A stretch of 20,000 bases of DNA from Candidatus Eiseniibacteriota bacterium (GCA_043809585.1 JBDROZ010000084.1:60743-80742); one strand, 5' to 3'. Counted from the stretch's first letter, positions 3,301 to 20,000 are shown. Made by a program: numbers and translations. The notes: generated by a model not told the origin, from the letters alone.

Positions 3301-4098
3301 TTCGACACGATCTCGATCTGCACGAACGGCTGGATTTCCATGGGTTCGACCGAGCTGATCTCTTACCGGAACTGGACCATCCCCGGCGGGGGCGGGCCGG
3401 ACGGGATCCTCGCGGTCTTCTGGGACAACTTGTACCAGGCCGGGGGCGCGAAGATCTACGTCAGGCACGACGAAGGGAACCACCGGTTCATCGTTCAGTG
3501 GAGCCGTCTCCTGAACGACTACTGCGGCGCCGTCGAGAACTTCGAAGTGATTCTCTTCGACCCGGCCTTCCACCCGACGGATACGGGGGACGGGATCATC
3601 CTCTACCAGTACGACGACATCACCAGCTGCGACGCCGTGAACGGCGGGTGCACGATCGGCATGGGGAGCCCGGACCAACGGGACGGACTTCTGGTGACGT
3701 ACTACGGACAGTACTCGGCGGGATCCATGGGGCTGGCCGACGTGAAGTCGATCAAGTTCGTGCCGGTCGGGCTCGGCGACATCTCGACGTTTGTCGCGAC
3801 CGGCGGCGGGCCGCCGATCGTGGTGACTGGTCTCGGCGCGGCGCGGCCGAATCCGTTCAACCCGAACACGACCCTCTCGTTCTCCTTGGAGAGCCCGGGC
3901 CCGGTCCGGATCGGCGTCTACGATGTCACGGGACGGCTCGTGCGGCGGCTCGTCGTGGGCGATCTTCCCGCGGGCACGCACGAGACGTCGTGGGACGGGC
4001 GAAGCGATCGGGGCGAGGGGGCGGCGTCGGGGGCGTATTTCGCGAGGATGGAGGCGGGCGGCGACGTGCGGGTGCGGAGGCTGATGCTGGTGAGGTAG
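400..4098 (+). CDS. Secreted C25 (gingipain-like) family protein: signal peptide, propeptide, C25 domain, tandem Ig-like repeats, C-terminal FlgD-Ig/T9SS-like domain (1232 aa)
   Basis: Hydrophobic N-terminus. Propeptide-like GxPxVPVFSRFVAVP. C25 motifs YLVIVGD, D-x-x-YG-x-L-x-GDD-x-x-D-x-x-x-GR, TC-x-TG-x-F, E-x-F-L-R, GAVGAVG, NLMGDP. Two repeats DGRINPGE/DGRLDPGE 112 aa apart. C-terminus PNPFNP...VYDVTGRLVR...WDGR...ASGAYF. Confidence 0.88.
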   Translation: MRNVVPFAVVAVFGLAAPLLAAGLVPLADRAGEPPVIEVVEPGDHGLRLIFEMKDLVEGSITTEDGSFQTAALPGGQIAGRPGEPGVPVFSRFVAVPEGAVIRVSAARGDEEIRAGVRLAPAPDEEDRILFREAIYFQARLEDEPAVTIGGPARIRDVTVVPITFRPVRYDAAGGVMKIARRLDVEIAFEGGAPRKSAASMKPVPTSFAELYRSIVLNADDLLAGREVRPGGIAVIYPDSAGILDSLQRYVEWRTRKGAEVIIASRAEAGGGKANIKSWIQSVYDDPDVALEYLVIVGDAGDVDTPFPIPCWHDLRSGYFGEGDLPYGLLEGDDDLADVHYGRLSFSTRDQLSIILSKTIGYETDPYTDDPDWFTRAVVVGDPRQSGISTVDAGRWLEHRLEGIGYDDIHTVYGGAFTSLMRTGLDRGNTVFAYRGFAGMSGWSNALTSILTNGRMLPFVATLTCLTGSFEGGTSISEGFLRAGTIGPFVSKGAVGAVGTATGGTHTRYNNCMHYGIWRGFTLEGLQTMGAALNRGRLEMFLNYEAMEPFIPVIWSYWNNLMGDPALDVFTSFPEPLTVTHPSVIPIGASGLNVLVEEPGGPCEGALVCLWKEGETHVTALTGPDGWADLGIGVATAGEMKVTVTKHDRRAYLASVPVTDTLHVGVSMGVISDDDPAAGAADGRINPGESIGYTVQLTNHGGQTVAAVTGTLTTGDPFITIVDGAEEFGDIPAGGFAWCADDFDFTVNPGCPDGHEARLILTASSADGSWESFVDLPVVSACLSADSAAVHDPDGRLDPGETAELSVRLSNGGGADATDAAVTLKSLSDFVIVTEGSAGYGTILSGGSAMNGGDRFTIVAAADAYEGMTAFLILTAEFSGGARDTAFLALPIGDRTEDDPAGPSGYGYWAFDDADTAYPEAPVFDWVELDPLYGGNGTEIVTSDFGEFEDETVLYELPFPFRYYGVEFDTISICTNGWISMGSTELISYRNWTIPGGGGPDGILAVFWDNLYQAGGAKIYVRHDEGNHRFIVQWSRLLNDYCGAVENFEVILFDPAFHPTDTGDGIILYQYDDITSCDAVNGGCTIGMGSPDQRDGLLVTYYGQYSAGSMGLADVKSIKFVPVGLGDISTFVATGGGPPIVVTGLGAARPNPFNPNTTLSFSLESPGPVRIGVYDVTGRLVRRLVVGDLPAGTHETSWDGRSDRGEGAASGAYFARMEAGGDVRVRRLMLVR

Positions 4099-4155
4099 GG
4101 GCATATGTCCTCCCACTTGGCTTGCCGGGGGGTACGGCGGGAGGACGAGGAGTCC

Positions 4156-6954: not shown

Positions 6955-6974
6955 CGTTCCTCCCCCGTCCTTGC

Positions 6975-8495
6975 TTACGCCGCCGCCGTCCTCTTCCGGG
7001 TGGCGAAGTAGAAGATGATCATGCCGATCGTGCCGGCGAGGCCGAAAGCGCCGAGATACCACCAGACCCGCCACGGGTCGTAGGTCTCCCAGAGCACCCG
7101 GGTCGCCTGGTCCACGGACGCGCCGCCCAGTGCCGCCGCGAGCGATTCCATCACCTGCTCGTCGCCGAGTTTCTCCACGCCCTCCGCCGCCATCCCGAGA
7201 TTGTGGACCATGTACTCCCGGGCGAGGTTGAACTTGCTCGACATGGTCTCGTACATCCGCCCGCCGATCCCGTTCCCCGCCGCCCAACCGATGGCGAAGG
7301 GGATGTTCGAATAGCCCATGTAGAGCGCCTTCTTGTCCTTCGGGGCGATGAGGCCGACGTAGGCGCTGAACGTGGGGCTGCAGGTCATCTCGCCGATCGA
7401 AAAGACGAGGATCATGAGGACGCAGAAGGAGCCGAGCATGGTCGATCCGGTGGCGACGAAACCGACGAGGGAGATCAGCATCCCCACCACCATGGCCGCG
7501 ACCTTGCTCACCCGCCCGATCAGCGCGGATATGAAGATCACGAGAAGGATGATCGACCACGGGTTGATGTTGATGATCATCTCCGGCTTCACCTGCCCGC
7601 TCTCCAGGAGCCAGCTCTTGCTGAAGAAGCCGAAGTAGGGAGCCACGTCGGCGGTGTTCACCCACTCGTCGATGAAGTTCGGCAGGAGATCCCAGAGCTG
7701 CATGAACATGAGCCAGAAGCAGGAGAAGATGAGGAGGAAGATGACGAGCCTAAGGTCCTTGAAGACCGTCGATATGGACGAGACGAAAACCTCCACCGGC
7801 CCCTGCTCCCTCTCCCCTTCCTTCACCGGTTCTTTTTCCGGTTCCCTGTAGAGGGTGAACGCCGGAATGAAGTTCAGGGAGGTCACGATGGCGGCGCCGT
7901 AGAAGACGTAGTGCCAGTTGATCTCGCCCCGGAGCGGCGCGGCGAGCATCGGGGCGAGGGCGCCGCCGATATTCACGACCCAGTAGAAGACGCCCCATCC
8001 CATGGAGGACGTGCTCTCGTCGGTCGACTTGGCTATGGTGCCGTGAACCGCCGGCTTGAAGATCGCCGTTCCCAGGGCGACGAAGCAGGCGGAAAGAAGG
8101 AAGACCCAGTAGGGGGCCCCGCTCCACCCTTGAGCCACGAAGGCATCGGCGATCGGCTTCGATTGGGCCATCCCTATGTAGCCGATGATGTTGAGCGTGA
8201 ACGCGACGGCGAGACTCTTCCGGTAGCCGTACCGTTCCGTGTACCCGCCCGAGACCATCGGCACCAGGCATTGGATCAGGGCCCAATACATGTAGATGTC
8301 GCCCTTCTGCTGGAACCCGAGGCCGAGCCCGTTCCTCTCGGCGGAGGCCACGAGGTAGAGGGGCGCGATCGCCCGCACTCCGAAGAAGGCGAGACGCTCG
8401 ATGATCTCCATGAAGTTGGCGAACCAGAAATTCGCCGGAAGGCCGCGAACCTGCTCGTAGAAGGACTGTTTCCTGACGGACGGGGTTGCTTCCAT
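6975..8495 (-). CDS. MFS transporter, POT/PTR-like proton-coupled oligopeptide transporter (506 aa; start re-called at 8495)
   Basis: ATG 8495 with CAGGAG RBS. N-terminal EIIERLAFFG matches the POT ExxER motif. Also G-x-x-x-ERYGYRK loop, GTAIFKP, FYWVVNIGG, SIGEM-x-x-SP, APKDKKALYMG, and many hydrophobic helices. Ends 20 bp before the M14 start, so probably one operon. Confidence 0.88.
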   Translation of the reverse strand: MEATPSVRKQSFYEQVRGLPANFWFANFMEIIERLAFFGVRAIAPLYLVASAERNGLGLGFQQKGDIYMYWALIQCLVPMVSGGYTERYGYRKSLAVAFTLNIIGYIGMAQSKPIADAFVAQGWSGAPYWVFLLSACFVALGTAIFKPAVHGTIAKSTDESTSSMGWGVFYWVVNIGGALAPMLAAPLRGEINWHYVFYGAAIVTSLNFIPAFTLYREPEKEPVKEGEREQGPVEVFVSSISTVFKDLRLVIFLLIFSCFWLMFMQLWDLLPNFIDEWVNTADVAPYFGFFSKSWLLESGQVKPEMIININPWSIILLVIFISALIGRVSKVAAMVVGMLISLVGFVATGSTMLGSFCVLMILVFSIGEMTCSPTFSAYVGLIAPKDKKALYMGYSNIPFAIGWAAGNGIGGRMYETMSSKFNLAREYMVHNLGMAAEGVEKLGDEQVMESLAAALGGASVDQATRVLWETYDPWRVWWYLGAFGLAGTIGMIIFYFATRKRTAAA

Positions 8496-8561
8496 GAACC
8501 GCTCCTGGTCTTGAGGGTGTCGAAGCGCGGCCGCCGGGCCCCGGGCCCGGGCGCTCCCGGC

Positions 8562-8650
8562 ATTGTACCAACTCGGCGGGCCCCTGTCCCCTTCTGCCCG
8601 TGGGGGCCGGACCGGATTCCCGTTTCCGGGAACGGGGCGTATGCTAAGAT
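8562..8650. promoter_or_regulatory. Divergent extended -10 promoters
   Basis: Minus strand TG-g-TACAAT (8570-8562) faces the POT/M14 operon. Plus strand TG-c-TAAGAT (8642-8650) faces the phosphodiesterase-like gene. Confidence 0.5.
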
Positions 8651-8763
8651 CGAAAAGCGGCCTCCGGAGGTTCGCGGGCGGAGACCTCCGGTCCTCCGGA
8701 TTTCCGCCGGGGAGCGCGCCTCCCCGAGGCCCTTCCCGGACGACCATGTATCCGAGGTATCCC

Positions 8764-10023
8764 ATGAGTCCACCCGGTCCCGCGCGTCCCCTCCTCTTCT
8801 GCAATATTCTCGCCCTCGACCGGCGCTGGATCTCGGCGGAGACGACCCCCTACCTCGGTTCCCTGCTCGGGTCGGAGCCCGTAGCCGATCTTCGGGGTTT
8901 TCCGAGCTCCGATACGATCACATCTCTCCTTCTCGGCTGCTGGCCGACGGAGCATGGATACTGGCACGTCCAGCTCAACCTCGACGCCGAGACGACCCGG
9001 GCCCGGCGAATCTTCGACGCCCTCCCCGACGGCTTGAACCGCACCCTCGGCTGCCTCGCCTTCCTCATCGACGATTCCCGGGACCTGGCGGCCGTCCCGA
9101 GCGGCCGGCGGCGGCGGTTCCATCTGAAACGATACAAGCAGAACTTCCGGGGCCGGCGCGTGGAAAACGCCTACCGGATCGGAGAGATGAGTTCCTTTCT
9201 CGCCGCGGCGGAGCATTGCGGACGATCCACGTCGTATTCGATCCCCCGGTACCTCCGCGAAGCCCGGGACTACCTCGGCGAGGCCTGCACGGGCGGGTTC
9301 GACATCGAATGCGTCGAGGTCCGGTTCCTGGACAACGGAACACACTGGTCCCTCGACCGGGAGGACCGGGTGCGGGAACTCTACGGCGAGGCGGACCGCC
9401 TCGTGAAGGACCTGCACGGGCGGTGCCGGGACGAGGGCTACTCCCTACTCCTCATGTCCGGCCATGGCCAGGAGCGGGTGCGCCACCGGATCGACCTCGC
9501 GGCCGCGCTCCGGGGCCTCGGCCTGGGGAAGAACGAGTACACCCACTTCATGGAGCTGCCCATGGCCCGCTTCTGGTTCCATTCGGACCGGGCCCGGGCC
9601 GCCGTGGAGGAGCTTCTCGGGGGGATGGAGCACGTCGAGACGCTGCGCCGGCGCGAGATGGAGAAATACGGATTCACCTTCTCCGACGATCGGCTCGGGG
9701 AACTCTTCGCCTTCGCCGACCCGGGCTACGTCTTCTTCCCCCACGATTTCTACCACCCCCTCGCGAATCTGTTCATGGCCGCCATGAACCCCCTCCACCG
9801 CCGCCGCCTTCTCAGCCCGGTCCTCCGGGGCGTCCACGGCTACCTCCCCGGACACCCGTCGGAGCGGGCGTTTCTCACGCTTCTCGATCACCCCCGGAAG
9901 CTCGATCGGCTCGAGGGGAAAACGACCGACGTCGCCCCCACCATTCTCCGGCTCTCCGAATGCCCCGTGCCCTCCTCCATGACGGGGACCTCCCTCGTCT
10001 CCGAACGGGAGCGGACGGGTTGA
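8764..10023 (+). CDS. Alkaline phosphatase / nucleotide pyrophosphatase-phosphodiesterase superfamily protein (419 aa; start re-called at 8764)
   Basis: GAGGT RBS before ATG 8764. Superfamily-like motifs: SS-x-TITSLLLG-x-x-P-x-EHG, LD-x-x-x-H, D-x-x-V-x-x-L, LLMSGHG, GELF-x-x-ADPG, GVHGY, DVAPTIL. No signal peptide. Confidence 0.75.
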   Translation: MSPPGPARPLLFCNILALDRRWISAETTPYLGSLLGSEPVADLRGFPSSDTITSLLLGCWPTEHGYWHVQLNLDAETTRARRIFDALPDGLNRTLGCLAFLIDDSRDLAAVPSGRRRRFHLKRYKQNFRGRRVENAYRIGEMSSFLAAAEHCGRSTSYSIPRYLREARDYLGEACTGGFDIECVEVRFLDNGTHWSLDREDRVRELYGEADRLVKDLHGRCRDEGYSLLLMSGHGQERVRHRIDLAAALRGLGLGKNEYTHFMELPMARFWFHSDRARAAVEELLGGMEHVETLRRREMEKYGFTFSDDRLGELFAFADPGYVFFPHDFYHPLANLFMAAMNPLHRRRLLSPVLRGVHGYLPGHPSERAFLTLLDHPRKLDRLEGKTTDVAPTILRLSECPVPSSMTGTSLVSERERTG

Positions 10024-11063
10024 ACGGCGGGGCCCTCCCGGCCTCGGGGAGCGGCGAGGTCCGAGAAGGGGGCCGGCGGCGCTCTCTCTCCCGCGCCCTC
10101 AAAGTCCTCGTCTCGGTCGGGATCGTCTGCATCCTCTTCCGCCGCGTGCCCGCCGGCGAAGTGATGGGCGCCCTCCGGCTCGCGAAGGGCGCGCCCATCA
10201 TTCTCGCCTGCGCCGTCTCCCTCTTCACCCAGGTCTTTCTCGCGTGGCGGCTCCGGATGTTGACGACGAAACAGGGGATCCGGCTCGGATTCGGGCGGAT
10301 TCTCGAGGTGAACCTCTCGAGCATGTTCTATGTGCTTTTCGTTCCCGGGGGAACCGTCGGATCCCTGATGGTTCGGGTCTACAAGCTGACCCGGGCGGAG
10401 AAGAAGCTCCCCGAGGCGGTGGCGGCGGTGGTCTTCGACCGCGTGGCGGCGACCGCCGCTCTCTGTCTCGTGGGGGGCGGGTTCTGGCTCATCGACCGTC
10501 CCTCGACGGGCGCCGCGGTGCGGCTCGCCATGACGGGCGTCCTCGCCGTCACGGCGATCCTGATCGCACTCCTCCTCTCCCGGAGAACGGCGAATCTTCT
10601 TCTCGCCCTCGCCCGTCGCGTACCCTTCGCCCCGGTGGCGTCCAGGATGGAGAAGCAGATCCGGGCGGTGGAGCGCTTTCATGACATGGGGCCCCCCGTT
10701 CTCGCCCTGGTGCTCGGGATCTCCGTCCTCACCCAGCTCTTGGGGCTCCTGACGTTCGGGATTCTCGGCCAGTCCCTGGGTCTGACGGTTTCGTGGACGA
10801 CCTTGGGGTGGATCCGGGGCGCGGCGATCGTGGTCGCCATGCTCCCCGTCGGCGTCGCGGGCATCGGCGTCCGGGAGGGCACCATTCTCTTCCTCTTGCA
10901 GGATCAGGGCGTGTCGCCCGAGAGCGCCCTGGCCGTCTCGATTCTCGTCACCTTCGCGACCGTTCTCCTCGTCTCCTTCGTCGGCGGCCTCGTCGAGGGG
11001 GCCCGCTTCTTCTTCGGGGAACAAAAAAAGCGGCCTCGGAACAAGTCCGAGGCCGCTGAGTAG
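10020..11063 (+). CDS. Lysylphosphatidylglycerol synthase TM-domain / UPF0104 flippase-like membrane protein (about 347 aa)
   Basis: TTG start overlaps the upstream TGA (TTGA, translational coupling; start not certain). Motifs LK-x-x-VS, AWRL-x-x-L, F-x-PGG-x-VG, VVFDR, LPVGVAGIGVREG and multiple TM helices are typical of this family. Confidence 0.8.
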   Translation: MNGGALPASGSGEVREGGRRRSLSRALKVLVSVGIVCILFRRVPAGEVMGALRLAKGAPIILACAVSLFTQVFLAWRLRMLTTKQGIRLGFGRILEVNLSSMFYVLFVPGGTVGSLMVRVYKLTRAEKKLPEAVAAVVFDRVAATAALCLVGGGFWLIDRPSTGAAVRLAMTGVLAVTAILIALLLSRRTANLLLALARRVPFAPVASRMEKQIRAVERFHDMGPPVLALVLGISVLTQLLGLLTFGILGQSLGLTVSWTTLGWIRGAAIVVAMLPVGVAGIGVREGTILFLLQDQGVSPESALAVSILVTFATVLLVSFVGGLVEGARFFFGEQKKRPRNKSEAAE

Positions 11064-11081: not shown

Positions 11082-11780
11082 CTACCGGAACATACCCTTG
11101 ATCGAGCCCCAGTTGGAACTCTCGGTGCTCGTGGGCCGGCAATCATCGACGGTCAGGTGGCCGTCGACGACGAAGTCGTAACCCAATGGAACGAGCGCCG
11201 TGTTGTCGGTCCAGCCGCCGCCGGTGGTGCCGTAGCAACCCTCGACGCGACCGTAGAGCTCCCCGCCCACCGGGCCGGTGAACTCGAAGTCGGCGCTGTA
11301 GGTGGCGGAGAAGCCGCCCGGGCCGACGAACCCGAGGAGCTCGAAGCCGGCCAGGAAGCCCTCCATGACGAGCGTACCGTCCGTGAACGTCGAGGGCGAC
11401 GTCGCGTTCGGCGGGTTCTCGCCGAAGTCGGCGTTATTCGAAGGATCTTCCCAGATCTCGAACAGCCCGCCGGCGTAGCTCGTCAGGATGATCCCGCCCA
11501 GATCCATGGAGCCGAGAGAGATCAGATCTTTGAAGATGAACGTGTACTCGGTCGTGTTGGGATCCAGATCGAGGAACGGGTCGTAGAAGACGTCGATCTT
11601 GCCGACGACGGTCAACTGCGATCCGGCGGCGCTCATGTGCGTCACCGAATTGTAGTCGGTCTCCCATCCGTAGCTGTCGGGCGCCCAGTCCATGATCAGA
11701 CCTTGGACGGCGAACGCCGGGACAGCGACAAGACTGCAGAGAACCGCCCCCAGGAAGAACGGCCGTAACAAACCTCTCAT
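11082..11780 (-). CDS. Secreted acidic protein with C-terminal WGxIK tail; paralog of 11872..12546 (232 aa)
   Basis: AAAGGAG RBS, Sec signal peptide ending AFA, ends PTSTESSNWGSIKGMFR*. Shares EYTF, G-x-F-x-I(W/Y)EDP, D(F/Y)G-x-x-PPN, P-x-TF-x-DGTL and P-x-GY-x-x-x-VDG with the adjacent gene. Confidence 0.88.
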   Translation of the reverse strand: MRGLLRPFFLGAVLCSLVAVPAFAVQGLIMDWAPDSYGWETDYNSVTHMSAAGSQLTVVGKIDVFYDPFLDLDPNTTEYTFIFKDLISLGSMDLGGIILTSYAGGLFEIWEDPSNNADFGENPPNATSPSTFTDGTLVMEGFLAGFELLGFVGPGGFSATYSADFEFTGPVGGELYGRVEGCYGTTGGGWTDNTALVPLGYDFVVDGHLTVDDCRPTSTESSNWGSIKGMFR

Positions 11781-11871
11781 AGAATAGTCTCCTTTTTTTA
11801 CCCCAAGACGCTATCGAAATCCGCGCCCGTCGGGCCGAGCCCGGGAAGTGCCCCGCCAGACGGACCTTCCG

Positions 11872-12546
11872 TTACTGGAAGAGACTCTTGATGCTGCCCC
11901 AACTGGTGTTCTCCGTCGAAACCGTCTCTTCGACGTAGACGAGACCGTCCACCGCCCAAATGTAACCGCCGGGAATGCCCGCTTCCTGGGTCTCGCCGGC
12001 GAACGTCCAACCCTCGTAGCAGGGGAGATCTCCCCAACCATCACCGCAGTAGAAGGTGATGGTGCCGTTGAGGGAGGCGGTGCTGTTCGAGAGGTTCACG
12101 ATAATGGATAAGGCAGTAAAAGTACCACCCAAGATCAAGGTGCCGTCTTCGAAAGTGGCCGGCGCCTCGAGGTTCGGCGGGTCGACGCCGTAATCCCGGT
12201 GCGTTCCCGCCGCGATCGGATCTTCGTAGATGTGGAACGTGCCATCGCCCGCGTTGTAGTCGTAACGGGCGAAGATGCCGGCGATCGTGTCGGCCGCGGT
12301 GAGCGTTCCGCTGTTCATCACGAACGTGTATTCGTTGTTCAGCGGATCGGTGATGAGCGCATCGGGATTAACGTTGTCCACATCCCCGAGAGCCGTGTAG
12401 ATCTGTCCGGGCGCCGTGAAGTCTCGGGGGATCGGCGCGGTGTAGTCGTAGCCGAAGTAGTCGCACAGAAGCATATCCGGATTCGGAAGCGCCTGCGCGA
12501 ACGACGCAGCCAGGACCAGAATCAGGCAGGACAGTAGCAATTTCAT
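11872..12546 (-). CDS. Secreted acidic protein with C-terminal WGxIK tail (224 aa)
   Basis: AAGGAGG upstream, signal peptide MKLLLSCLILVLAASFAQA, ends TVSTENTSWGSIKSLFQ*. Paralogous motifs as above. Confidence 0.88.
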   Translation of the reverse strand: MKLLLSCLILVLAASFAQALPNPDMLLCDYFGYDYTAPIPRDFTAPGQIYTALGDVDNVNPDALITDPLNNEYTFVMNSGTLTAADTIAGIFARYDYNAGDGTFHIYEDPIAAGTHRDYGVDPPNLEAPATFEDGTLILGGTFTALSIIVNLSNSTASLNGTITFYCGDGWGDLPCYEGWTFAGETQEAGIPGGYIWAVDGLVYVEETVSTENTSWGSIKSLFQ

Positions 12547-12672
12547 CGATTCCCTTCCTCCTTACTCGAACCGCGCCTCCGACCAGGCCCTCCTGATCTT
12601 TACCGCGCCTCGTAACTATCGTAGAATGGGCATCCGAGGATAGGCCCCACAGAGGCTCCTATCCGAGGCTGA

Positions 12673-12701
12673 ATATTAGCACAGACGCCATCGCGTTTCA
12701 A
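12673..12701 (-). promoter_or_regulatory. Sigma70-type promoter of the tandem WGxIK-tail genes
   Basis: Minus strand TTGAAA (12701-12696), 17 bp, TAATAT (12678-12673) with extended TG-n. Confidence 0.7.
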
Positions 12702-12777
12702 GAAACATCTTTCGATCAATCCGATTTCCCGGAAAGAAGACGAAAAAGTGAAGATCGGGCACATCGGCCATTCACCA

Positions 12778-12790
12778 TAAACCATTGATT
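12778..12790 (-). promoter_or_regulatory. IHF-consensus binding site
   Basis: Minus strand AATCAA-TGGT-TTA is an exact match to WATCAANNNNTTR, in an AT-rich intergenic region about 77 bp upstream of the -35 above. Confidence 0.5.
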
Positions 12791-13223
12791 TCATATACGA
12801 TACAGAGGACCCTCCGACTTAGCGACGCTCATCTCGGTTGATTCCCTTGCAACATGTCCGCGGTGTTGATGAATGCCGGCCGGAAACCGTCGGGCACCCA
12901 CCCGGATACTTTCCTTTTATTAACGAGATAACATCTTGTCATATTGTCGGTTATGGGATCGCTACAAATCAACTTTCCGAGATGGCGTCATTCTCTTGAC
13001 ACGTCCCGGCGGGGACCGAGGAAAAGCCCTACAGAATGGTCACTTCCGAAACCGTGCCGATTCTTCCCCCCGGCGAGGCGGGACGGGGGCGGCCGCCCTG
13101 CGATGACCGGCGGGAGGAGGGCCGGATGAACGGTGCCGCGCGGGCATCACGCTCCGAGGAGGGGGGGGACCGGCATTCTCCTCCTCCTTCTCCGCCTTAG
13201 GGATAAGGTCGCTCTTCCCTATT

Positions 13224-13233
13224 TGTATATAAT
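13224..13233 (+). promoter_or_regulatory. Putative -10 element of the S9 peptidase gene
   Basis: Perfect TATAAT at 13228-13233, about 60 bp upstream of AGGAGG RBS and ATG 13295. No clear -35. Confidence 0.5.
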
Positions 13234-13294
13234 GGGTGCGATCCTCGGATTCTCGTGAAACCGGACGACTTTCACTTCCACCAGGAGGGAGCCG

Positions 13295-15430
13295 ATGCGC
13301 CGCTCCGTTTTTCCCCTCTTCGTGACCCTGTCGATTCTCTTCTTCGCCGGATGCGGGGGAAAGGGGGGGGCGCCGAAGGCCCCGGTCCGCACGGTTACCG
13401 ACACGTACTGGGGGGTGGGGGTGAAGGACGACTACCGCTACATGGAGAATCAGGAGGACCCGGCCGTCCGGAAATGGGCCGAAGGACAAGACGAGTACAC
13501 CGCGCGCCGGCTCGAGGAATTTGCCGCGCGGGAGGCCCTCGGAAACCGTGTGCGCGCGCTGCTCGGCGCCGATTCGGAGGACTACCAGAAAGTCGTCACG
13601 GCGGAGGACCGCACCTTCGCCCTAAAGTACCAACCGCCCAAGCAGCAAGCCTCTCTCGTGACGCTCTCCTCCTTCGCCGAGGACCGGGAGGAGAACATCT
13701 TGATCGATCCGAACGAGATCGACCCGACCGGCGGAACGAGAATCGACTTCTTCGAGCCCTCCCCCGACGGCCGGTTCGTGGCGGTCTCCCTTTCCGCGAA
13801 CGGCACGGAGGACGGCACCCTTCACGTGTGGGACGCGGTGACGGGCGAGAAGCTCGCCGAGGAGATCCCCCGCGTGAGCGGCGGCACCGCGGGCGGAAGC
13901 GTGGCGTGGACCGCGGGCGGCGGCGGGCTCTACTACACGCGCTATCCCCATCCGGGCGAGCGCCCCGACGAGGAGCTCCCCTTCTACCAGCAGATCTGGC
14001 ACCACCGAATCGGCGATCCGATCGATAACGACAGGTACGCGCTCGGCGAGACCTTCCCGAAGATCGCGGAAATCGAACTGGTCGCGAACGACGGGGGGAC
14101 GGCGTTCATCGCCAAGGTCAGTCTCGGCGACGGAGGGGAATACGAGTTCTGGCTTCTCGAGGGGGACGGGGCGTGGACGAAGTTCGCCCGCTTCGAGGAC
14201 GGTTGCCAGCGGGCCTCGTTCGGCAAGGACGGTTCGATCTATCTTCTCTGCCGGAAAGACGCGCCGCACAAGAAGCTCCTGGTTATCCCCCCCGGCGGGC
14301 GAAGCGTCGCCCTGGCGCGCACGGCGATCGCCGAGACGGGCGCGGTGCTCACCGGCTTCCGGGTCACGGAGAACCGGATCTACGCCATCGAGATGGTGGG
14401 CGGGCCGTCCCAGGTCCACATCTACGATCTCCGGGGGAACTCGCTCGGTTACGTCGCCCTCGGCGAGATCAGCACGATCTCGTCCGTGACCGGCCTCGTC
14501 GGGGACGATGTGCTCGTCCGGAGCGAGAGCTACACCCGGCCTCCCGGTTGGTACCGGTACGGGCCGGGCATGGACATCCCCGAGCGCACGGACCTCGTCA
14601 CGACCTCGGCGGCCGATTTTTCGGGGTGCGACGTGGTCCGGCGGTTCGCCGTCGCCGACGACGGCGTGAATGTCCCGGTGGACCTCATCAAGAGGAAGGA
14701 GACGCCTCTCGACGGGACCGCGCCGGCGATCCTCTACGGGTACGGGTCGTACGGGATCAGCCAGCGTCCCCGCTTCCGAGATTCGCGCCTCCTCTGGCTC
14801 GAACAGGGGGGCATCCTCGCCGTCGCGAGCATCCGGGGGGGCGGAGAGTACGGTGACGAGTGGCACCGGGCGGCCAACCTCGAAAAGAAGAAGCGGAGCA
14901 TCGACGATTTCGCGGCGTGCGCCCGGTTCCTCGTGGAGTCGGGGATCACGTCGAGGGAGAAGCTCGTCCTCGAAGGGGGGAGCGCGGGGGGAATGCTCGT
15001 CTACGGAACGACGGTCCTCTACCCGGAGGTCGCGGGGGCGGCGGTCTCCTACGTGGGGTTCGGAGACGTCTTGCGTTCCGAGTTCGCGCCGAACGGGGAA
15101 TTCAACATCACCGAGTTCGGGACGGTGAAGGACAGCGTGCAGTTTGCGGGAATGTACGGGTACTCGCCCTACCATCACGTGAGGAAGGGCGTGGAATATC
15201 CGGCGGTGATGAGTCTCACGGGATTGAACGATCCGCGGGTGGAGTCGTGGCATCCGTTCAAGATGACCGCCGCCCTCCAGGCGTCGGGGACGAAGAACCC
15301 GGTGCTTCTCCGGATCGACGAGAAGTCGGGTCACGGAGGCGGCTCACTCGAGCAGCAGGTCGCCCGGACGACGGACGTCTACTCGTTCATCTTCATGATG
15401 ACGGGGACGGAATACCGGGAGGTGGAATAG
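13295..15430 (+). CDS. S9A prolyl oligopeptidase-family serine peptidase, predicted lipoprotein (711 aa)
   Basis: AGGAGG RBS. Lipobox FAGC (Cys20). N-terminal D-x-Y-x-G-x-x-V-x-D-x-YR-x-ME. Beta-propeller SPDG-x-x-VA. Catalytic domain LYGYGSYG, IRGGGEYG-x-x-WH, GGSAGG (Ser), NDPRV (Asp), SGHGG (His). Confidence 0.93.
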   Translation: MRRSVFPLFVTLSILFFAGCGGKGGAPKAPVRTVTDTYWGVGVKDDYRYMENQEDPAVRKWAEGQDEYTARRLEEFAAREALGNRVRALLGADSEDYQKVVTAEDRTFALKYQPPKQQASLVTLSSFAEDREENILIDPNEIDPTGGTRIDFFEPSPDGRFVAVSLSANGTEDGTLHVWDAVTGEKLAEEIPRVSGGTAGGSVAWTAGGGGLYYTRYPHPGERPDEELPFYQQIWHHRIGDPIDNDRYALGETFPKIAEIELVANDGGTAFIAKVSLGDGGEYEFWLLEGDGAWTKFARFEDGCQRASFGKDGSIYLLCRKDAPHKKLLVIPPGGRSVALARTAIAETGAVLTGFRVTENRIYAIEMVGGPSQVHIYDLRGNSLGYVALGEISTISSVTGLVGDDVLVRSESYTRPPGWYRYGPGMDIPERTDLVTTSAADFSGCDVVRRFAVADDGVNVPVDLIKRKETPLDGTAPAILYGYGSYGISQRPRFRDSRLLWLEQGGILAVASIRGGGEYGDEWHRAANLEKKKRSIDDFAACARFLVESGITSREKLVLEGGSAGGMLVYGTTVLYPEVAGAAVSYVGFGDVLRSEFAPNGEFNITEFGTVKDSVQFAGMYGYSPYHHVRKGVEYPAVMSLTGLNDPRVESWHPFKMTAALQASGTKNPVLLRIDEKSGHGGGSLEQQVARTTDVYSFIFMMTGTEYREVE

Positions 15431-15442
15431 CGAGCGGCAGCC

Positions 15443-15609
15443 CTAGTGTTCCGAATTAGAAGTTCGTTGTCGATTTCAGCAGATCATCGCGATTCCTGGC
15501 GAGGTGCGATGACGACGGCGTACCAATAGGTACATCGAGGAAGAGCAACGAAGCCAGGGACCGTGAGGGGCGGCGAAACTGGTGACGAACTTCTAATTCG
15601 GGACACTAG
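15443..15609. mobile_element. MITE-like non-autonomous element, 167 bp, 25-bp terminal inverted repeats bounded by CTAG
   Basis: Left CTAGTGTTCCGAATTAGAAGTTCGT (15443-15467) versus right ACGAACTTCTAATTCGGGACACTAG (15585-15609): 24/25 complementary. Internal nested stems, lower GC than flanks, no transposase. Confidence 0.8.
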
Positions 15610-16622
15610 TTCCTCCACAGCTTCGGCGCGTGGTCCCAGCCGACGGCGTGGGCGGAAACCCTCCAATACCCGAAATCCCCCTTCTCGTTTTTCGGCCGCA
15701 CGTTTTCGATGACGATGCGCACCGTGTGGCGGCCGGGCGTCAAGTGGTCGGTCAGGTCGATCTCGACGGGAAGGACCTCCACTCCCGGGCACCATCCGCT
15801 CCGGCTGTAGTCGGACGACCAGTAGCCGTCGGACCAGCGGGCGGTGTACGGGTTCCGGTCCCGGTACTCCCGGCAGTCGTCCCGCCATGGGTGGAAGCGG
15901 TGGACGACGGCGCCGTCCACGGAGATCACGTTCGCCTTCGACACGAACTCGTCTTCGTCGGTTCCGTCGGTGCAGTGGCCCGTGCTGGTGTACATCAGGA
16001 CCACCCGCTTCATTCCTTCCGGGACGTCGATTTCCGTCTCCACTCCTTCCGGCATTCCTTCGCGATGGAACGAATCGGTGTAGTAGAGGGGCGCCGCCCA
16101 CGCCGCGTTGTCGGAGGCCGTGTCCGGTTCGAACCGGAGGGTGAAGTCGATCCGCCACGCCGGCGACACCCAGGTATCGACGAAGGCGGCGAACTCGCAC
16201 GCCCCCCGGAGAAGGGGGGCGAGACGGGTCACGTCCGCTTCGTGCTCGGTCCGGCCGCCGTAGGATGTCATGAAGCGGAGCACCTCGAGATCGGGACGGC
16301 CGGGGAGGCGAAGGCGGATGTTGCCCGCCCGGTCCCACCGGTCGTGGACCTCCCGCGCCTCCTTCGGGATCGGCTTCACGGTGAGGAGTGCCGTGATCCG
16401 GACCGGCCCTTCCGGCTCGGGGAGGCCGACCGCTCGGATGATGACCCTTCCGTTGTCCCGGGCCCGAAGCGAATCGCCCACGTACTTTTCCGGCGATTCC
16501 GCGCTGAAGTGAATGTTCGCGTCCCGAAAGACCGGAATCTCCCTCCGGCCCGGTTCCTCGGCGAACGCGAACCCGATCGGCAGGGTGAGGCAAAGGACCC
16601 GCAAGACGAAACCGACTCTCAT
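15606..16622 (-). CDS. Secreted peptide-N-glycosidase F-related protein (338 aa)
   Basis: AAGGAG RBS, signal peptide ending AFA. Motifs D-x-WDR-x-G, E-x-x-RF-x-T-x-YGG, DVT-x-x-x-PLL-x-G, TGH...DEF, SRSGWCPG resemble the PNGase F two-domain family. Activity not demonstrable from sequence. Confidence 0.78.
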   Translation of the reverse strand: MRVGFVLRVLCLTLPIGFAFAEEPGRREIPVFRDANIHFSAESPEKYVGDSLRARDNGRVIIRAVGLPEPEGPVRITALLTVKPIPKEAREVHDRWDRAGNIRLRLPGRPDLEVLRFMTSYGGRTEHEADVTRLAPLLRGACEFAAFVDTWVSPAWRIDFTLRFEPDTASDNAAWAAPLYYTDSFHREGMPEGVETEIDVPEGMKRVVLMYTSTGHCTDGTDEDEFVSKANVISVDGAVVHRFHPWRDDCREYRDRNPYTARWSDGYWSSDYSRSGWCPGVEVLPVEIDLTDHLTPGRHTVRIVIENVRPKNEKGDFGYWRVSAHAVGWDHAPKLWRN

Positions 16623-16761
16623 CCCGCTCTCCTTCCACCCGGAGGATCGTGGACGATCCCCTCATTCCCGGAGTAGATCCTGCGGGAAGAGAGTACCCTC
16701 GCGGGAAGGGGACGACCAGAGAATCCTCGAAGGGAGGGAGGGCGCGGGGAGCGCCGGCCCG

Positions 16762-16953
16762 TCACTCCGGCGGGAAGCCCTCCTCCTCGTCCCCGACGCC
16801 CGAAAACCCCCGGACCGCGCTCATCCCCTCGAAGAAGGTGAGCAACTCCGCGACGGAGGTGAACAGGACCTCCTCGCCCGTGCCGACGTGCCGCACCTTC
16901 CCGTGAAACCGCTCGGATGGGTCGGCGAAGAAGCGGATGACAAAGGTGCTCAT
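16762..16953 (-). CDS. Small hypothetical protein (63 aa)
   Basis: GGGGAGG RBS 4 nt before ATG, GC3-rich codons, compact pattern FVIRFF...FHGKVRHVGTGEEVLFTSVAELLTFF (beta strands plus amphipathic helix). Confidence 0.72.
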   Translation of the reverse strand: MSTFVIRFFADPSERFHGKVRHVGTGEEVLFTSVAELLTFFEGMSAVRGFSGVGDEEEGFPPE

Positions 16954-17015
16954 GAGGCCTCCCCTCTCGTCGGGCCGATTCCGTCAACCCGCGTCCATGA
17001 CGATAAAGGGAGGGC

Positions 17016-17035
17016 GTTACGCGGAAGTTACGCGG
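17016..17035. promoter_or_regulatory. Tandem 9-bp direct repeat with 11-bp period (candidate winged-helix regulator site)
   Basis: GTTACGCGG-AA-GTTACGCGG, about 60-80 bp upstream of the 63-aa gene start. Confidence 0.45.
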
Positions 17036-17529
17036 GGGGATCCGGGGACGCCATGCCGATTTCCCGAAGCGCCCGCTTTCTCGGACTCCTCCTCCGCACA
17101 GGGGGATGTTCGTGGTGCCCGTCCGTAGGGCTACGGACGATTCCGAAGCTCTCCCATGACGTCCTCCTTCCCGCTGCGGCGGGAGTTGGGGCTTCTACGA
17201 CAGCCCCATCATTAGGAGGGTCCCGATCCTTGGGGGAAGGGGACGTGTCCCGAGATCGCGGAGGCGGAGCAATCGCTAAACATTGTTCTAGAAGCGGTTT
17301 CGTTCAACGAACCCTCCCGCAAAAGGTCGAAAGGACGACGACGGGAGCGTGTGAGCGGCGGAACACACAGCGTGCCTTCCAGCCGTGGCAAGAGCAACGA
17401 GCGGTCACCGGCGAGAAGCGGCCCGTCTCGCGGGTGTCTCGAATCTCCGGCGAGACGGAGAGATGGGTAATGTCTGGCAGGACAATGCAGAAGGGGTTTT
17501 TGGAAGGGACTGAGGCCGCCCTTTCTTTC

Positions 17530-17558
17530 TTGAAAATCTCCGCCGAGTATGATAGGCT
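17530..17558 (+). promoter_or_regulatory. Sigma70-type promoter of the third WGxIK-tail gene
   Basis: TTGAAA (17530-17535), 17 bp, TAGGCT (17553-17558) with extended TG-n. Confidence 0.6.
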
Positions 17559-17689
17559 ATCTCACGCGTAGAGATATCGATCATCCAGTGGTCGGTTCGA
17601 GCCGATTCCGATCCGGCGGGATCCGGATCGGCCCGTACTCCATCGATAGGTGTCCACAAGCCTCTCAGAATGATTAGAAGGAGGTGGCT

Positions 17690-18190
17690 ATGACAAGATT
17701 GCTCATGACTCTGGCCGTGTTGGCGTTGGTCGCCATGCCGGTCTTCGCCCAGAACCCGGATCCGGGTGTCCAGGTCGTCGATTGCTTCGAGGACCCGGTC
17801 GGCTCGGGCAACTGGACGTACTGGTTTTACACTTGCAGCGGTGACTTCTCGGCGAACGACCTGCATCTGGAACTCACCCAGGCGGAGATCGACGAGGGAA
17901 CCGTGATCATCGGCTGCAGCGTTCCCGACCTTCCTGGTTTTGTGTGCGATTTCAACGCGACGTCGGCATCGTGGGACTTCCCACTCGTCGGCCCGTTCGG
18001 GTGCGTTCCCGGAGTGTCCGGCCAGTATCTCGACATCGTGATCTCCACCGGCGACGGCAGCACGATCGTAACGGAGACGTGGACGTTGGACGGTGCGCCG
18101 GTCGGGTCGTTCACGACCCTTGTCGCCTGCCCCCCGCCGACTTCTACCGAGACCGAGGCTTGGGGTACGATCAAGGCTCTGTTCCGCTAG
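17690..18190 (+). CDS. Secreted Cys-containing acidic protein with C-terminal WGxIK tail (166 aa; start re-called at ATG 17690)
   Basis: AAGGAGGT RBS 4 nt before ATG. Signal peptide MTRLLMTLAVLALVAMPVFA. Six Cys in the mature part. Ends PPPTSTETEAWGTIKALFR*. Confidence 0.88.
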   Translation: MTRLLMTLAVLALVAMPVFAQNPDPGVQVVDCFEDPVGSGNWTYWFYTCSGDFSANDLHLELTQAEIDEGTVIIGCSVPDLPGFVCDFNATSASWDFPLVGPFGCVPGVSGQYLDIVISTGDGSTIVTETWTLDGAPVGSFTTLVACPPPTSTETEAWGTIKALFR

Positions 18191-18195
18191 ACCGA

Positions 18196-18263
18196 AACCG
18201 GCCGGCGCTTCCGGCCCGGTTCGACAGAACGATGAAGCCCCGTTCCTGAGGGAGCGGGGCTTC
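18196..18263 (+). terminator. Two GC-rich hairpins after the 17690 gene (terminator or 3'-stabilising stems)
   Basis: AACCGGCCGG/CCGGCCCGGTT (18196-18221, one bulge) and GAAGCCCCGTTCC-TGAG-GGAGCGGGGCTTC (18234-18263, 13 bp with one G-U). No long U tract. Confidence 0.5.
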
Positions 18264-18529
18264 CCCTTGTCCAGCACGAATCACCATCCCCGTCGTCATC
18301 GGATGTCCGGCTGAAGATCGCCAATCCGTGCCCCTCCCAGCCCCCCCATCCACCACCCGGCCCGGCCTCCGCCCTCCCCCCGCCCGCCTCGGGGCCGAGT
18401 TGACCTTCCGCGAAAACGCCGGGCGACCATTACCATGGAGAAAGGCGGCGAATGCAGGGCGGTTTTCGGCATCTCCTGCATCCGGGGCTCCACAGCTTGG
18501 GTCCGTCTTGAACCCTGCACCTGTGATTG

Positions 18530-18558
18530 TTGTCTCACGGGTTCGGAAGACGTACACT
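18530..18558 (+). promoter_or_regulatory. Sigma70-type promoter of the small basic ORF
   Basis: TTGTCT (18530-18535), 17 bp, TACACT (18553-18558). Confidence 0.55.
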
Positions 18559-18618
18559 GCTGGCGTGGCGGCGCCATTCCGCCGGGAAGACCAAGGATAA
18601 CGGCCAAGGAGGCGTGCT

Positions 18619-18741
18619 GTGGGAGACAAGGGCAAGAGGGACAAGGAAAAGGGTCAGAAGCAGAAGGTGAACAAACAGGCGAAGGAAACGAAAAGAAAGC
18701 TGGAGAAACGGCCGACAAGGACCGCGTTACAGAAGGGATGA
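18619..18741 (+). CDS. Small Lys-rich basic protein, 40 aa (not in ORF track)
   Basis: AAGGAGG RBS, 6 nt, GTG. Translation MGDKGKRDKEKGQKQKVNKQAKETKRKLEKRPTRTALQKG*. Has its own promoter. The stretch is strikingly purine-rich and confined to the ORF. Confidence 0.72.
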   Translation: MGDKGKRDKEKGQKQKVNKQAKETKRKLEKRPTRTALQKG

Positions 18742-18840
18742 CGAGGGGTCCCTTGTCCTTTCCATGAGAATGCCGAATCTATCACGACCGACGTGGTGGC
18801 CCTTCCTCCGCCCCTCCCCCCCTGAGGCAGGACTGGAGTC

Positions 18841-18897
18841 TTCCGAGCCGGAGGCCTGCCTGAGTAGGACCGAAGGTCCGTATCGAAGGGCTCGGGA
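18841..18897. repeat. REP-like extragenic palindrome (CCTGAG...TCGAAGG type)
   Basis: Outer arms TTCCGAGCC/GGCTCGGGA enclose CCTGAGTA-GGACC-GAA-GGTCC-GTATCGAAGG, between convergent gene ends. Single copy in the window, so repeat status is inferred. Confidence 0.45.
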
Positions 18898-18948
18898 GGC
18901 GTCCGTAACCCTCTCATTCCAAAGTCACCGACAAGTCAAGGGGACGAT

Positions 18949-20000
18949 CTACATCGCATCTCCCGTCACGCTCTGCACCTCCGCCTCGGGAAGGTCGAGG
19001 TCCCGAAGCTGTTCGAGGACGACGTCCTTGTCGCCGACGAGAACGAGAAGGCCCCGATCGAGGGCCACGGTCTTCGCCGCGAGGGCGTTCAGATCCGCTT
19101 CGGTCATGCGGGCCATGGCGCCGAGGTCCTCGCCGATGGCGGCGAAGGGGCGGCCGAGGAACTCGAACTGCATCGCCGTCCCGACGAGGCCGCCGAGCCC
19201 CTGGAACGCCTGGACGGTGTCCATCCGGTTCGTCTCCCGGGTCTTTCGCGCTTCCTCGGGCGTGATGTCGCCGCTCCGGATCTTCCCGAACTCCTTCAGG
19301 AACTCGCCGAGGGCCGCGCCGGTCACCTCGGCCTGCACGTCGGAGAAGGCGAGCTGGTAACCGGTGGACGGGTTCATCATGCACCGCGATCCCGCGCCGT
19401 AGGTGAACCCGTTCTTCTCGCGCAGGTTCGCGTTCAGCCGGCTCGTGAAGGAACCGCCGAGAACGGTGTTCACCAGTTCGTAGCCGACCCGGTCCGGGTC
19501 GTTGCCGAGAGGCCCGGGCATGAAGAAGCGGATCACCGTCTGCACCGCGTCTTCCTTGTCGACCACCACCACCCGGAGATGATCGGTGGCGGGCGCCTTC
19601 ACGCCGACCGGCGGGGCGGGCGTGAAACCGGCCGGGTTCTTCCATCCGCCGAGCGCGTTCTCGAGGATTCCCTTCGCCTCCGCCGCGGTCAGGTTGCCGG
19701 CGATGAAGATCGTCGCGTTCCCCGGCGCGAAATGGCGGGCCCACGCGTTTTTCAAGTTTTCGAGTGTGAGGGCCTCCACGGATGCGGTCGTCCCCTCCCC
19801 CGGCGAACCGTACGGATGATCGTCGCCGAAGAAGGCGCGCATGCCGACGCGCATGGCCACCGAGCGGGGCCGGTCCTCCATCTGCCGGAGACCCTCGAGG
19901 TGAAGCGCCTTCACCCGCTCCCACTCCGCCGGGTCGAACCGGGGGCGGAGAAGGGCGTCGGCGCAGAGCCCGAGAGAGGCACCGAAATTCCGGCCGAGCG
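18949..20000 (-). CDS. C-terminal part of an M16 (pitrilysin/insulinase, PqqL-like) family protein; 5' end outside the window
   Basis: Frame is open to the window edge (…LGLCADALLRPRFDPAEWERV…). Motifs FGDDHPYG, F-x-P-x-NA-x-I-x-x-AGN, VVVDK-x-x-x-x-QT, LGGSFTSRLN-x-NLREK-x-GFTYG. No HxxEH visible in the part present. Confidence 0.88.
   Translation of the reverse strand, partial: LGRNFGASLGLCADALLRPRFDPAEWERVKALHLEGLRQMEDRPRSVAMRVGMRAFFGDDHPYGSPGEGTTASVEALTLENLKNAWARHFAPGNATIFIAGNLTAAEAKGILENALGGWKNPAGFTPAPPVGVKAPATDHLRVVVVDKEDAVQTVIRFFMPGPLGNDPDRVGYELVNTVLGGSFTSRLNANLREKNGFTYGAGSRCMMNPSTGYQLAFSDVQAEVTGAALGEFLKEFGKIRSGDITPEEARKTRETNRMDTVQAFQGLGGLVGTAMQFEFLGRPFAAIGEDLGAMARMTEADLNALAAKTVALDRGLLVLVGDKDVVLEQLRDLDLPEAEVQSVTGDAM

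Follow-up and report, generated by a model that had tools for sequence, protein, structure and literature searches.

A short, apparently undescribed C-terminal tag on Sec-exported proteins of Candidatus Eiseniibacteriota and other lineages that carry a type IX secretion system

Introduction

Three secreted proteins encoded in a 20,000-nucleotide stretch of a Candidatus Eiseniibacteriota bacterium genome (GCA_043809585.1, JBDROZ010000084.1:60743-80742; this whole stretch is referred to here as the window) share a short tail at the C-terminus, and analyses of the complete genome and of genomes from other phyla identified this tail as a real and widespread C-terminal tag that is apparently undescribed. 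As read from the aligned sequences, the core of the tag is [ST]-W-G-x-[IVL]-K-x-[LM]-[FY]-x-COOH, ahead of which proteins of this family carry a (P)TSTE linker. [quoted passage not shown]

Results

The three carriers in the window, named genes A, B and C, each start with a Sec-type signal peptide. Gene A (11082-11780, minus strand) encodes a 232-amino acid (aa) protein with an all-beta passenger and the C-terminal end ...CRPTSTESSNWGSIKGMFR; its tail, PTSTESSNWGSIKGMFR, is encoded at 11085-11135, with the stop codon at 11082-11084. Gene B (11872-12546, minus strand) encodes a paralogue of 224 aa with the C-terminal end ...TVSTENTSWGSIKSLFQ, the coding positions of the tail being 11875-11925 and those of the stop codon 11872-11874. 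The 168-aa product of gene C (17684-18190, plus strand) ends in ...PPTSTETEAWGTIKALFR, with the tail PTSTETEAWGTIKALFR encoded at 18137-18187 and the stop codon at 18188-18190. In an alignment of gene A homologues, gene B was 31% identical to gene A, and blastp placed the two in one cluster, while the passenger of gene C formed a singleton cluster without blastp similarity to A or B outside the tail. None of the three proteins had a Pfam or NCBIfam match at E<=1.

An initial annotation of the window had described three secreted proteins with a shared tail, two of them paralogues and one unrelated to these. The three open reading frames, their signal peptides, the relationships between them and the tails were all recovered, the last far beyond what chance would give. 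The tail ranges given in that annotation were correctly placed but took in the stop codon together with 16 of the quoted 17 residues, so that position 18140 starts a T codon and not a P codon. For genes A and B, the ranges locate tails that lie on the minus strand, and reading them on the plus strand does not give the tail.

The genome assembly (4.24 Mb in 123 contigs, 66% G+C, with the window on contig C84) was scanned in six frames with the pattern WG.[ILVM]K..[FYWLM] in open frames of at least 50 aa. This type of scan had been proposed in the initial annotation; 56 of the 60 matches were located within five residues of a stop codon, with exactly one residue between motif and stop in 51 cases, whereas reversed segments yielded 7 matches and five rounds of shuffling yielded 1-5 matches, none of which was near an end. 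A profile search with the tail added five C-terminal variants whose motif reads either W-[ST]-G or W-[ST]-[ST], plus an internal copy. Pattern and profile matches together, on rough gene calls, gave 61 tagged genes in the genome. The consensus of the 51 tails in exact register, with the number of tails in parentheses, was P(20) T(38) S(31) T(44) E(38) x x [ST](47) W(51) G(51) x [VI](49) K(51) x [LM](44) [FY](51) R(47), followed by the stop codon.

The tail is under selection at the protein level. Within this genome the tails use GGC, GGG, GGT and GGA for Gly, both AGY and TCN for Ser at position -10, and five codons for Arg, and this synonymous variation indicates that selection acts on the peptide and not on a DNA repeat. 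A DNA repeat or chance as the origin of the tail was ruled out by the codon variation together with the absence of near-terminal matches in the controls.

Two further features of the tails were observed in the census. The internal copy (C115:42812-43489, minus strand) reads ...TGTEKESWGSVKRRFR and is followed by 83 further residues before the stop codon; it may have arisen by loss of a stop codon or by extension. Additionally, cysteine is common 19 and 20 residues before the C-terminus, just ahead of the linker (9 and 12 of the 51 tails, respectively), where it may form a disulfide that closes the passenger domain.

Carriers and their passengers

A signal peptide without a later transmembrane helix was detected for 46 of the 61 tagged genes and 94 of 145 genes encoding a T9SS CTD, compared with 363 of 2680 other genes (Fisher p ~9e-27), using a crude test that was applied identically to all genes. 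Most of the 15 tagged genes that failed the test had a visible signal peptide on inspection, and a few were lipoproteins. The association with signal peptides that the initial annotation had suggested checking is therefore evident from the counts for tagged and other genes. The carriers are small, with a median length of 259 aa compared with 752 aa for CTD cargo and 326 aa for other genes.

After removal of the tail and the signal peptide, the 61 carriers fell into 28 blastp clusters, 22 of which were singletons (the first 56 carriers had given 30). One representative per passenger cluster was searched against Pfam with curated cut-offs. The matches comprised Beta_helix, NosD and Chlamydia-PMP repeats, LTD (lamin-tail domain), VWA, PD40, pAdhesive_15 (an ice-binding-like adhesive domain) and Lcl_C; 11 of 26 cluster representatives, as well as A and C, had no Pfam match whatever, and no cytoplasmic or housekeeping enzyme domain was found by Pfam among the representatives. 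Judged from these domain matches, the tagged proteins look like small modules of the surface or adhesin type.

The tail is a portable module that is independent of the passenger fold and confined to the extreme C-terminus. It occurs on 28 unrelated passenger clusters and is not packed against the domain in a structural model of gene A. The mobile module postulated in the initial annotation was thus borne out by the passenger clusters and by the unpacked, low-confidence tail of the model.

Conservation and structure of the tail

All 30 homologues of gene A found in databases keep the tail, down to about 30-31% identity, and W224, G225 and K228 are among only 7 invariant columns in the alignment of 31 gene A homologues. 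An AlphaFold2 (AF2) model of gene A, built on the homologue alignment, had a mean predicted local distance difference test (pLDDT) score of 83.9. The model consists of a confident beta-sandwich at residues 28-213, a low-confidence linker and, in the tail, a short helix at residues 221-230 (pLDDT ~51-63) that makes no packing contacts with the domain. A Foldseek search with this model found no relative of the gene A fold in the PDB at E<=0.001.

The last 10 residues of the tails have a mean hydrophobicity of ~0, and with one residue after the motif there is no transmembrane helix in the tail, as had been noted from the window alone. Isolated tails (n=25) gave no Pfam or NCBIfam match at E<=10, nor was there a PDB match to the tail, so the search for an existing model that the initial annotation had proposed returned none. 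A literature search with the motif as text retrieved one unrelated paper only, and no description of the tail was found in the searchable literature, subscription-only papers and supplements lying outside this search. That annotation had also named beforehand three findings that would speak against its proposal, namely restriction of the motif to a single homologous family, equally frequent occurrence on cytoplasmic proteins or at internal positions, and coverage by a characterized domain model; none of the three was observed.

Relation to the T9SS C-terminal domain

The genome encodes SprA above cut-off, nine PorV-family barrels and two full-length PorU sortases above the curated cut-off. The first PorU-type sortase (C39:1357-4836, minus strand) is directly beside the best PorV-like barrel (C39:282-1253), and the second is located at C39:109688-113119 on the minus strand. 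With a hidden Markov model (HMM) iterated inside the genome, a C-terminal CTD of the FlgD-Ig type was detected on 146 proteins, none of which is also tagged. Among these is the C25 peptidase of the window (400-4098, plus strand; 1232 aa), which provides a comparator next to the tagged genes. Its CTD is of the FlgD-Ig/Por_Secre_tail type, covers residues ~1150-1229 and ends in ...RRLMLVR, and the protein matches Peptidase_C25, Propeptide_C25 and FlgD_ig in Pfam and TIGR04183 in NCBIfam with 26.3 bits (cut-off 23).

For 22 of the 61 tagged proteins, the genome encodes a CTD-ending paralogue (E<=1e-6). In the best pairs of tail and CTD proteins, the alignment extends as far as a shared end of the passenger (such as ...IEGY paired with ...IDGY), beyond which either a tail of 13-19 aa or ~100 aa of linker and CTD follows. 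The tail takes the same junction as the T9SS CTD in paralogues and is never combined with it. The parallel to the FlgD-Ig/T9SS CTD that the initial annotation had drawn hence extends to positional interchangeability. Genes with a CTD also lie within three genes of tail genes somewhat more often than expected (22 compared with 14.3, p=0.024), and a terminal R is found in 121 of the 146 CTDs and 47 of the 51 tails of this genome.

Distribution across genomes

Tails were found in four phylum-level groups. All 10 genomes searched from the phylum of this genome carry them (11-49 matches each, 0 in the reversed control), and all 10 have SprA. In the group of a metagenome-assembled genome labelled Gemmatimonadota (G010), tails were present in 10 of 10 genomes searched and SprA in 12 of 12. 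The group of G011, which includes a Latescibacteria metagenome-assembled genome, had tails in 147 of 151 genomes, with 0-68 matches per genome and 2101 in total (2 in the control), and SprA in 150 of 151. In the Zixibacteria-labelled group of G013, tails were present in 32 of 81 genomes and SprA in 81 of 81. SprA was therefore detected in 198 of the 199 tail-bearing genomes. The exception, G156, has 46 CTD matches on a fragmented assembly of at least 469 contigs, which makes an assembly gap the probable reason for the missing SprA. On this sequence evidence, every tail-bearing lineage seen has a T9SS, which is compatible with dependence of the tail on that system and does not demonstrate it.

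A stricter pattern was scanned against all species genomes and gave at least 133 loci, with real tails in all 133 listed. By their record labels, the matches listed came from Eisenbacteria, Krumholzibacteriia, Latescibacterota, Zixibacteria, Gemmatimonadota and Fibrobacteraceae or Fibrobacter sp. Among these matches, tails outside the family of this genome mostly have P-V-E or T-A-T-E as a linker and L-Y-R at the end, so T-S-T is not a conserved feature. The T-S-T-E linker, the STE of which the initial annotation had included in the tail, is accordingly local to this family and not conserved in other lineages. In some lineages, the last residue of the tail is E, D or N.

Stop codon usage was also recorded. 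TGA is scarcer in secreted cargo, being used by 15 of the 61 tagged genes and 51 of the 145 CTD genes compared with 1183 of the 2680 other genes. Among the 133 tails listed from other phyla, the stop codon is TAG in 73 cases, TGA in 32 and TAA in 28.

Almost all positive genomes of the Zixibacteria-labelled group contain a single match, and it ends in WGKIKALF[KR]. The single carrier is a conserved, exported protein of 139 aa with a weak DUF6795 match, encoded downstream of rex and divergent from glmS (for example, at L271:8724-9140 on the minus strand in G183 and at L272:8306-8725 on the plus strand in G192). This protein was considered as the founder of the tagged proteins and rejected, since the Eiseniibacteriota genome has no homologue of its passenger and its neighbors, glmS and rex, are not secretion genes.

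Within the group of G011, genomes in which SprA appears as one long Bacteroidota-like match (E<1e-120) have 0-3 tails (G026, G029, G030, G034, G040, G058, G075, G101 and G164), with the exception of G036, which has 20. This long form of SprA is probably a marker of the lineage boundary that limits the tag's expansion.

Other genes of the window

The other genes of the window encode a secreted M14 carboxypeptidase (4156 to ~6960, minus strand), a POT/MFS transporter (6975 to ~8500, minus strand), a 486-aa open reading frame without a Pfam match (8563-10023), an LPG_synthase_TM protein (~10002-11063), an S9 prolyl oligopeptidase (13295-15430), a PNGase F-like protein (15606-16622, minus strand) and an M16 peptidase (18949-19998, minus strand). 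Together with the C25 peptidase, the regions 400-10023 and 13295-19998 constitute a neighborhood of secreted peptidases and peptide uptake.

Discussion

If the tail is a sorting signal linked to the T9SS, cargo would first be exported by the Sec pathway, after which a receptor protein in the sorting apparatus of the outer membrane would recognize the free C-terminal peptide. This receptor would most likely belong to the T9SS pathway, with its SprA translocon and PorV-type shuttle, and the tail would be a second, minimal mark on cargo destined for surface display or release. The exchange of tail and CTD at one junction and the presence of SprA throughout the tail-bearing lineages are among the observations that point in this direction.

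Several results weigh against a link to the T9SS. Of the 254 genomes tested, 253 have SprA, and the tail-less ones are among them (4 of 151 in the group of G011 and 49 of 81 in the Zixibacteria-labelled group); because the system is universal in this background, its co-occurrence with the tail does not discriminate. Genomes without tails include G030, G032, G058 and G123. In the Eiseniibacteriota genome, GldM and PorP/SprF gave no match with models that were silent in the control genomes as well, and the GldK matches were partial and below the cut-off of a model that also matched in the control genomes. Motifs B, D and E of the CTD are all missing from the tail, for which a helix and not beta structure is predicted. 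Moreover, tails in G146 and G056 often end in E, D or K, yet R is the last residue of 17 of 20 and 17 of 19 CTDs in these genomes (among the best 20 of 45 and the best 20 of 89 CTD matches, respectively). The last residues of tail and CTD thus do not vary together, CTDs keeping R where tails vary.

The search for a T9SS component that would read the tail added to these points. PorV-like barrels are near tail genes in only 1 of 9 cases in this genome, and the copies of the PorV family number 3, 5, 4, 3 and 5 in tail-poor genomes and 5, 4, 3, 4 and 5 in tail-rich ones. One barrel clade seemed specific to tail-rich genomes in a quick tree from an unfinished search. Across the 151 genomes, the median was 19.5 tails in the 56 with a close orthologue and 9 in the 87 without one, a difference (Mann-Whitney p ~4e-8) between relatives that are not independent of each other. 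As a reader, this clade was rejected: at least 20 tails were counted in 12 of the 87 genomes that lack a close orthologue and no more than 5 in 7 of the 56 that possess one, and the tail-less G123 has a diverged copy (a two-piece match in one frame). A close orthologue is not required and does not suffice, and the association runs along lineage lines. The second PorU was likewise rejected as a sortase for the tail, as G144 (68 tails) and G080 (42 tails) have a single copy like tail-poor genomes, and in 10 other genomes PorU copy number did not track tail abundance. The initial annotation had the tail directing export, cleavage or attachment, a claim for which the tests of adjacency, copy number, barrel clade, PorU and last residue identified no machinery.

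The absence of a T9SS part that tracks the tag, together with a last residue that does not co-vary with that of the CTD, would suit a different possibility, in which the tag would dock or sort proteins by way of a dedicated reader outside the T9SS. Such a reader could be a scaffold at the surface, a receptor in the S-layer or outer membrane, or a periplasmic domain of the TPR or PDZ type that binds free C-termini. In that case, tail and CTD would be exchanged because they lead to different destinations, and not because they share a route. The invariant W, G and K, with their constant spacing to the free C-terminal end, would be in keeping with a specific peptide-binding pocket, and one phylum has a single conserved 139-aa tagged protein in 32 of 81 genomes with no expansion of cargo. 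Set against this, analysis of neighboring genes gave no candidate receptor, PMT_2/TPR genes being near tail genes at the level of chance (8 compared with 5.3 expected), and the T9SS is also present in every tail-bearing lineage seen. We consider such a reader rather unlikely. A more specific proposal, that the decapeptide [ST]WGx[IV]Kx[LM][FY]x-COOH would serve as the address label in a sorting route that possesses a reader of its own and that the peptide alone would be enough to bring a protein to the surface, is similarly doubtful.

The tail might also work without any reader, as a short amphipathic helix that would hold the exported protein to a membrane surface in the way that the C-terminal helices of MinD and PBP5 attach to the membrane surface. 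The initial annotation had predicted that the tail would form a short amphipathic helix. The AF2 helix at residues 221-230, a common helical face for W, V/I, L/M and F/Y in the sequence, flanked by K and R, and a helical hydrophobic moment of 0.52 at 100 degrees (with a peak of 0.58 at 110 degrees) agree with it weakly. The prediction fared less well against shuffled sequences, where only 2 of the 51 tails were above 95% of their own shuffles, the other 49 being no better than shuffles, and mean hydrophobicity is ~0. Nine residues would be a very short anchor, the confidence of the helix is low, and near-invariant W, G and K across unrelated proteins and phyla would be unusual for a purely physico-chemical anchor, all of which make this explanation improbable.

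A role as a processing or turnover tag, which would set the maturation or half-life of a protein and not its location, is less plausible again and in our estimate very improbable. The tail would in this case be addressed by a C-terminal peptidase, for example a tail-specific protease with a PDZ domain or a carboxypeptidase that trims the basic end. The fixed distance from the motif to the free C-terminus, the mostly basic last residue, and the secreted M14 carboxypeptidase and further peptidases encoded in the window would all suit this role. However, the peptidase neighborhood is found only in this window and no recurrent peptidase is encoded beside the 61 tail genes, the last residue is E, D or N in some lineages, and exchange with a secretion domain is not expected of a degradation tag.

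Finally, it is hardly credible that the tail recruits a GT-C/TPR (PMT_2, TMTC-like) membrane glycosyltransferase for O-glycosylation of the adjacent T-S-T linker: although TPR domains are established readers of C-terminal peptides, T-S-T-E precedes the tail in this genome, and 8 members of one PMT_2/TPR cluster with 55 homologues are within three genes of tail genes, this proximity is that of chance and the T-S-T is replaced by P-V-E and other residues outside this family, and the candidate was rejected on both counts. The PMT_2 (GT-C)/TPR cluster, with ~55 homologues in the genome, is in itself an unusually large family of putative periplasmic glycosyltransferases.

Comparison with known C-terminal signals

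The short C-terminal tags read by LPXTG/sortase, PEP-CTERM/exosortase, GlyGly-CTERM/rhombosortase and MYXO-CTERM systems resemble the tail in being multi-copy, lineage-restricted and attached to many unrelated secreted proteins. They differ from it in their tripartite build of motif, transmembrane helix and basic end; in the tail, neither a transmembrane helix nor a cluster of basic residues comes after the motif, which is followed by a single residue in 51 of 56 cases, and the tail matches no model of these signals. The beta-signal of outer-membrane proteins places an aromatic residue last in a beta-barrel, while the tail has its aromatic residue at -2 and R last in 47 of 51 cases, and it sits on soluble passengers (beta-sandwich, beta-helix, VWA, LTD and the like).

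How the tail may work can be illustrated by the peroxisomal targeting signal PTS1 (SKL-COOH), which is read by the TPR domain of PEX5, and by other signals that consist of a free C-terminal peptide. Like the tail, PTS1 is very short, is set by its distance from the free carboxyl end and is portable between unrelated proteins. It operates in another compartment and another domain of life, and the proximity of TPR genes to tail genes was at chance.

The T9SS type A CTD (TIGR04183/PF18962/PF13860) is closest in position. Both signals are at the extreme C-terminus of Sec-exported and often adhesin-like proteins, both take the same junction in paralogues, and both end in this genome with two hydrophobic residues and Arg; the tail, moreover, occurs only in genomes with SprA, PorV-like barrels and PorU. 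In contrast, the tail has 10-17 residues where the CTD has 40-100, its cargo is shorter (median 259 aa versus 752 aa), and the last residues of the two do not co-vary. The Ig-like beta-sandwich of ~40-100 residues with matches to the HMMs, which defines the type A CTD, is missing from the tail, as are motifs B, D and E, in keeping with its predicted helical structure. Shorter signals are on record: in PMC11969387, Prevotella intermedia is described as having natural CTDs of 40-55 aa with three strands, and only the last 22 residues of Hbp35 as absolutely required. The extreme C-terminus of the CTD is presented as a functional motif in PMC11285876, and binding of CTD motifs by PorM and PorN is reported in bioRxiv 10.1101/483123.

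The type B CTD with PorP/SprF (TIGR04131/TIGR03519) offers a precedent for a second class of signals within one system. According to PMC12618676, different types of T9SS signals use different shuttle proteins, the second class has specialized shuttles, and these shuttle barrels set the final destination. In the genome studied here, TIGR04131 and TIGR03519 had 0 matches, with control genomes that were equally silent and leave the sensitivity of both models unproven, and no shuttle is paired with tail genes. Since the tail lacks the defining features of type A and type B CTDs and of tripartite signals, it is not to be filed under any of them; it may nonetheless work like a CTD.

Implications

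C-terminal sorting signals decide which proteins reach the surface of a bacterium, and the known ones are either whole domains, such as the T9SS CTD, or a motif combined with a membrane helix, as in the sortase and exosortase types. A tag of 10-17 residues with neither domain nor helix would be a new class. It is carried by roughly 10-70 proteins per genome, most of them without known function, and would allow the surface proteome to be predicted from sequence in several uncultured phyla of soil and sediment, while supplying annotation pipelines with a model that they now lack. The tag could also serve as a very small, portable tag for export or display. [quoted passage not shown]

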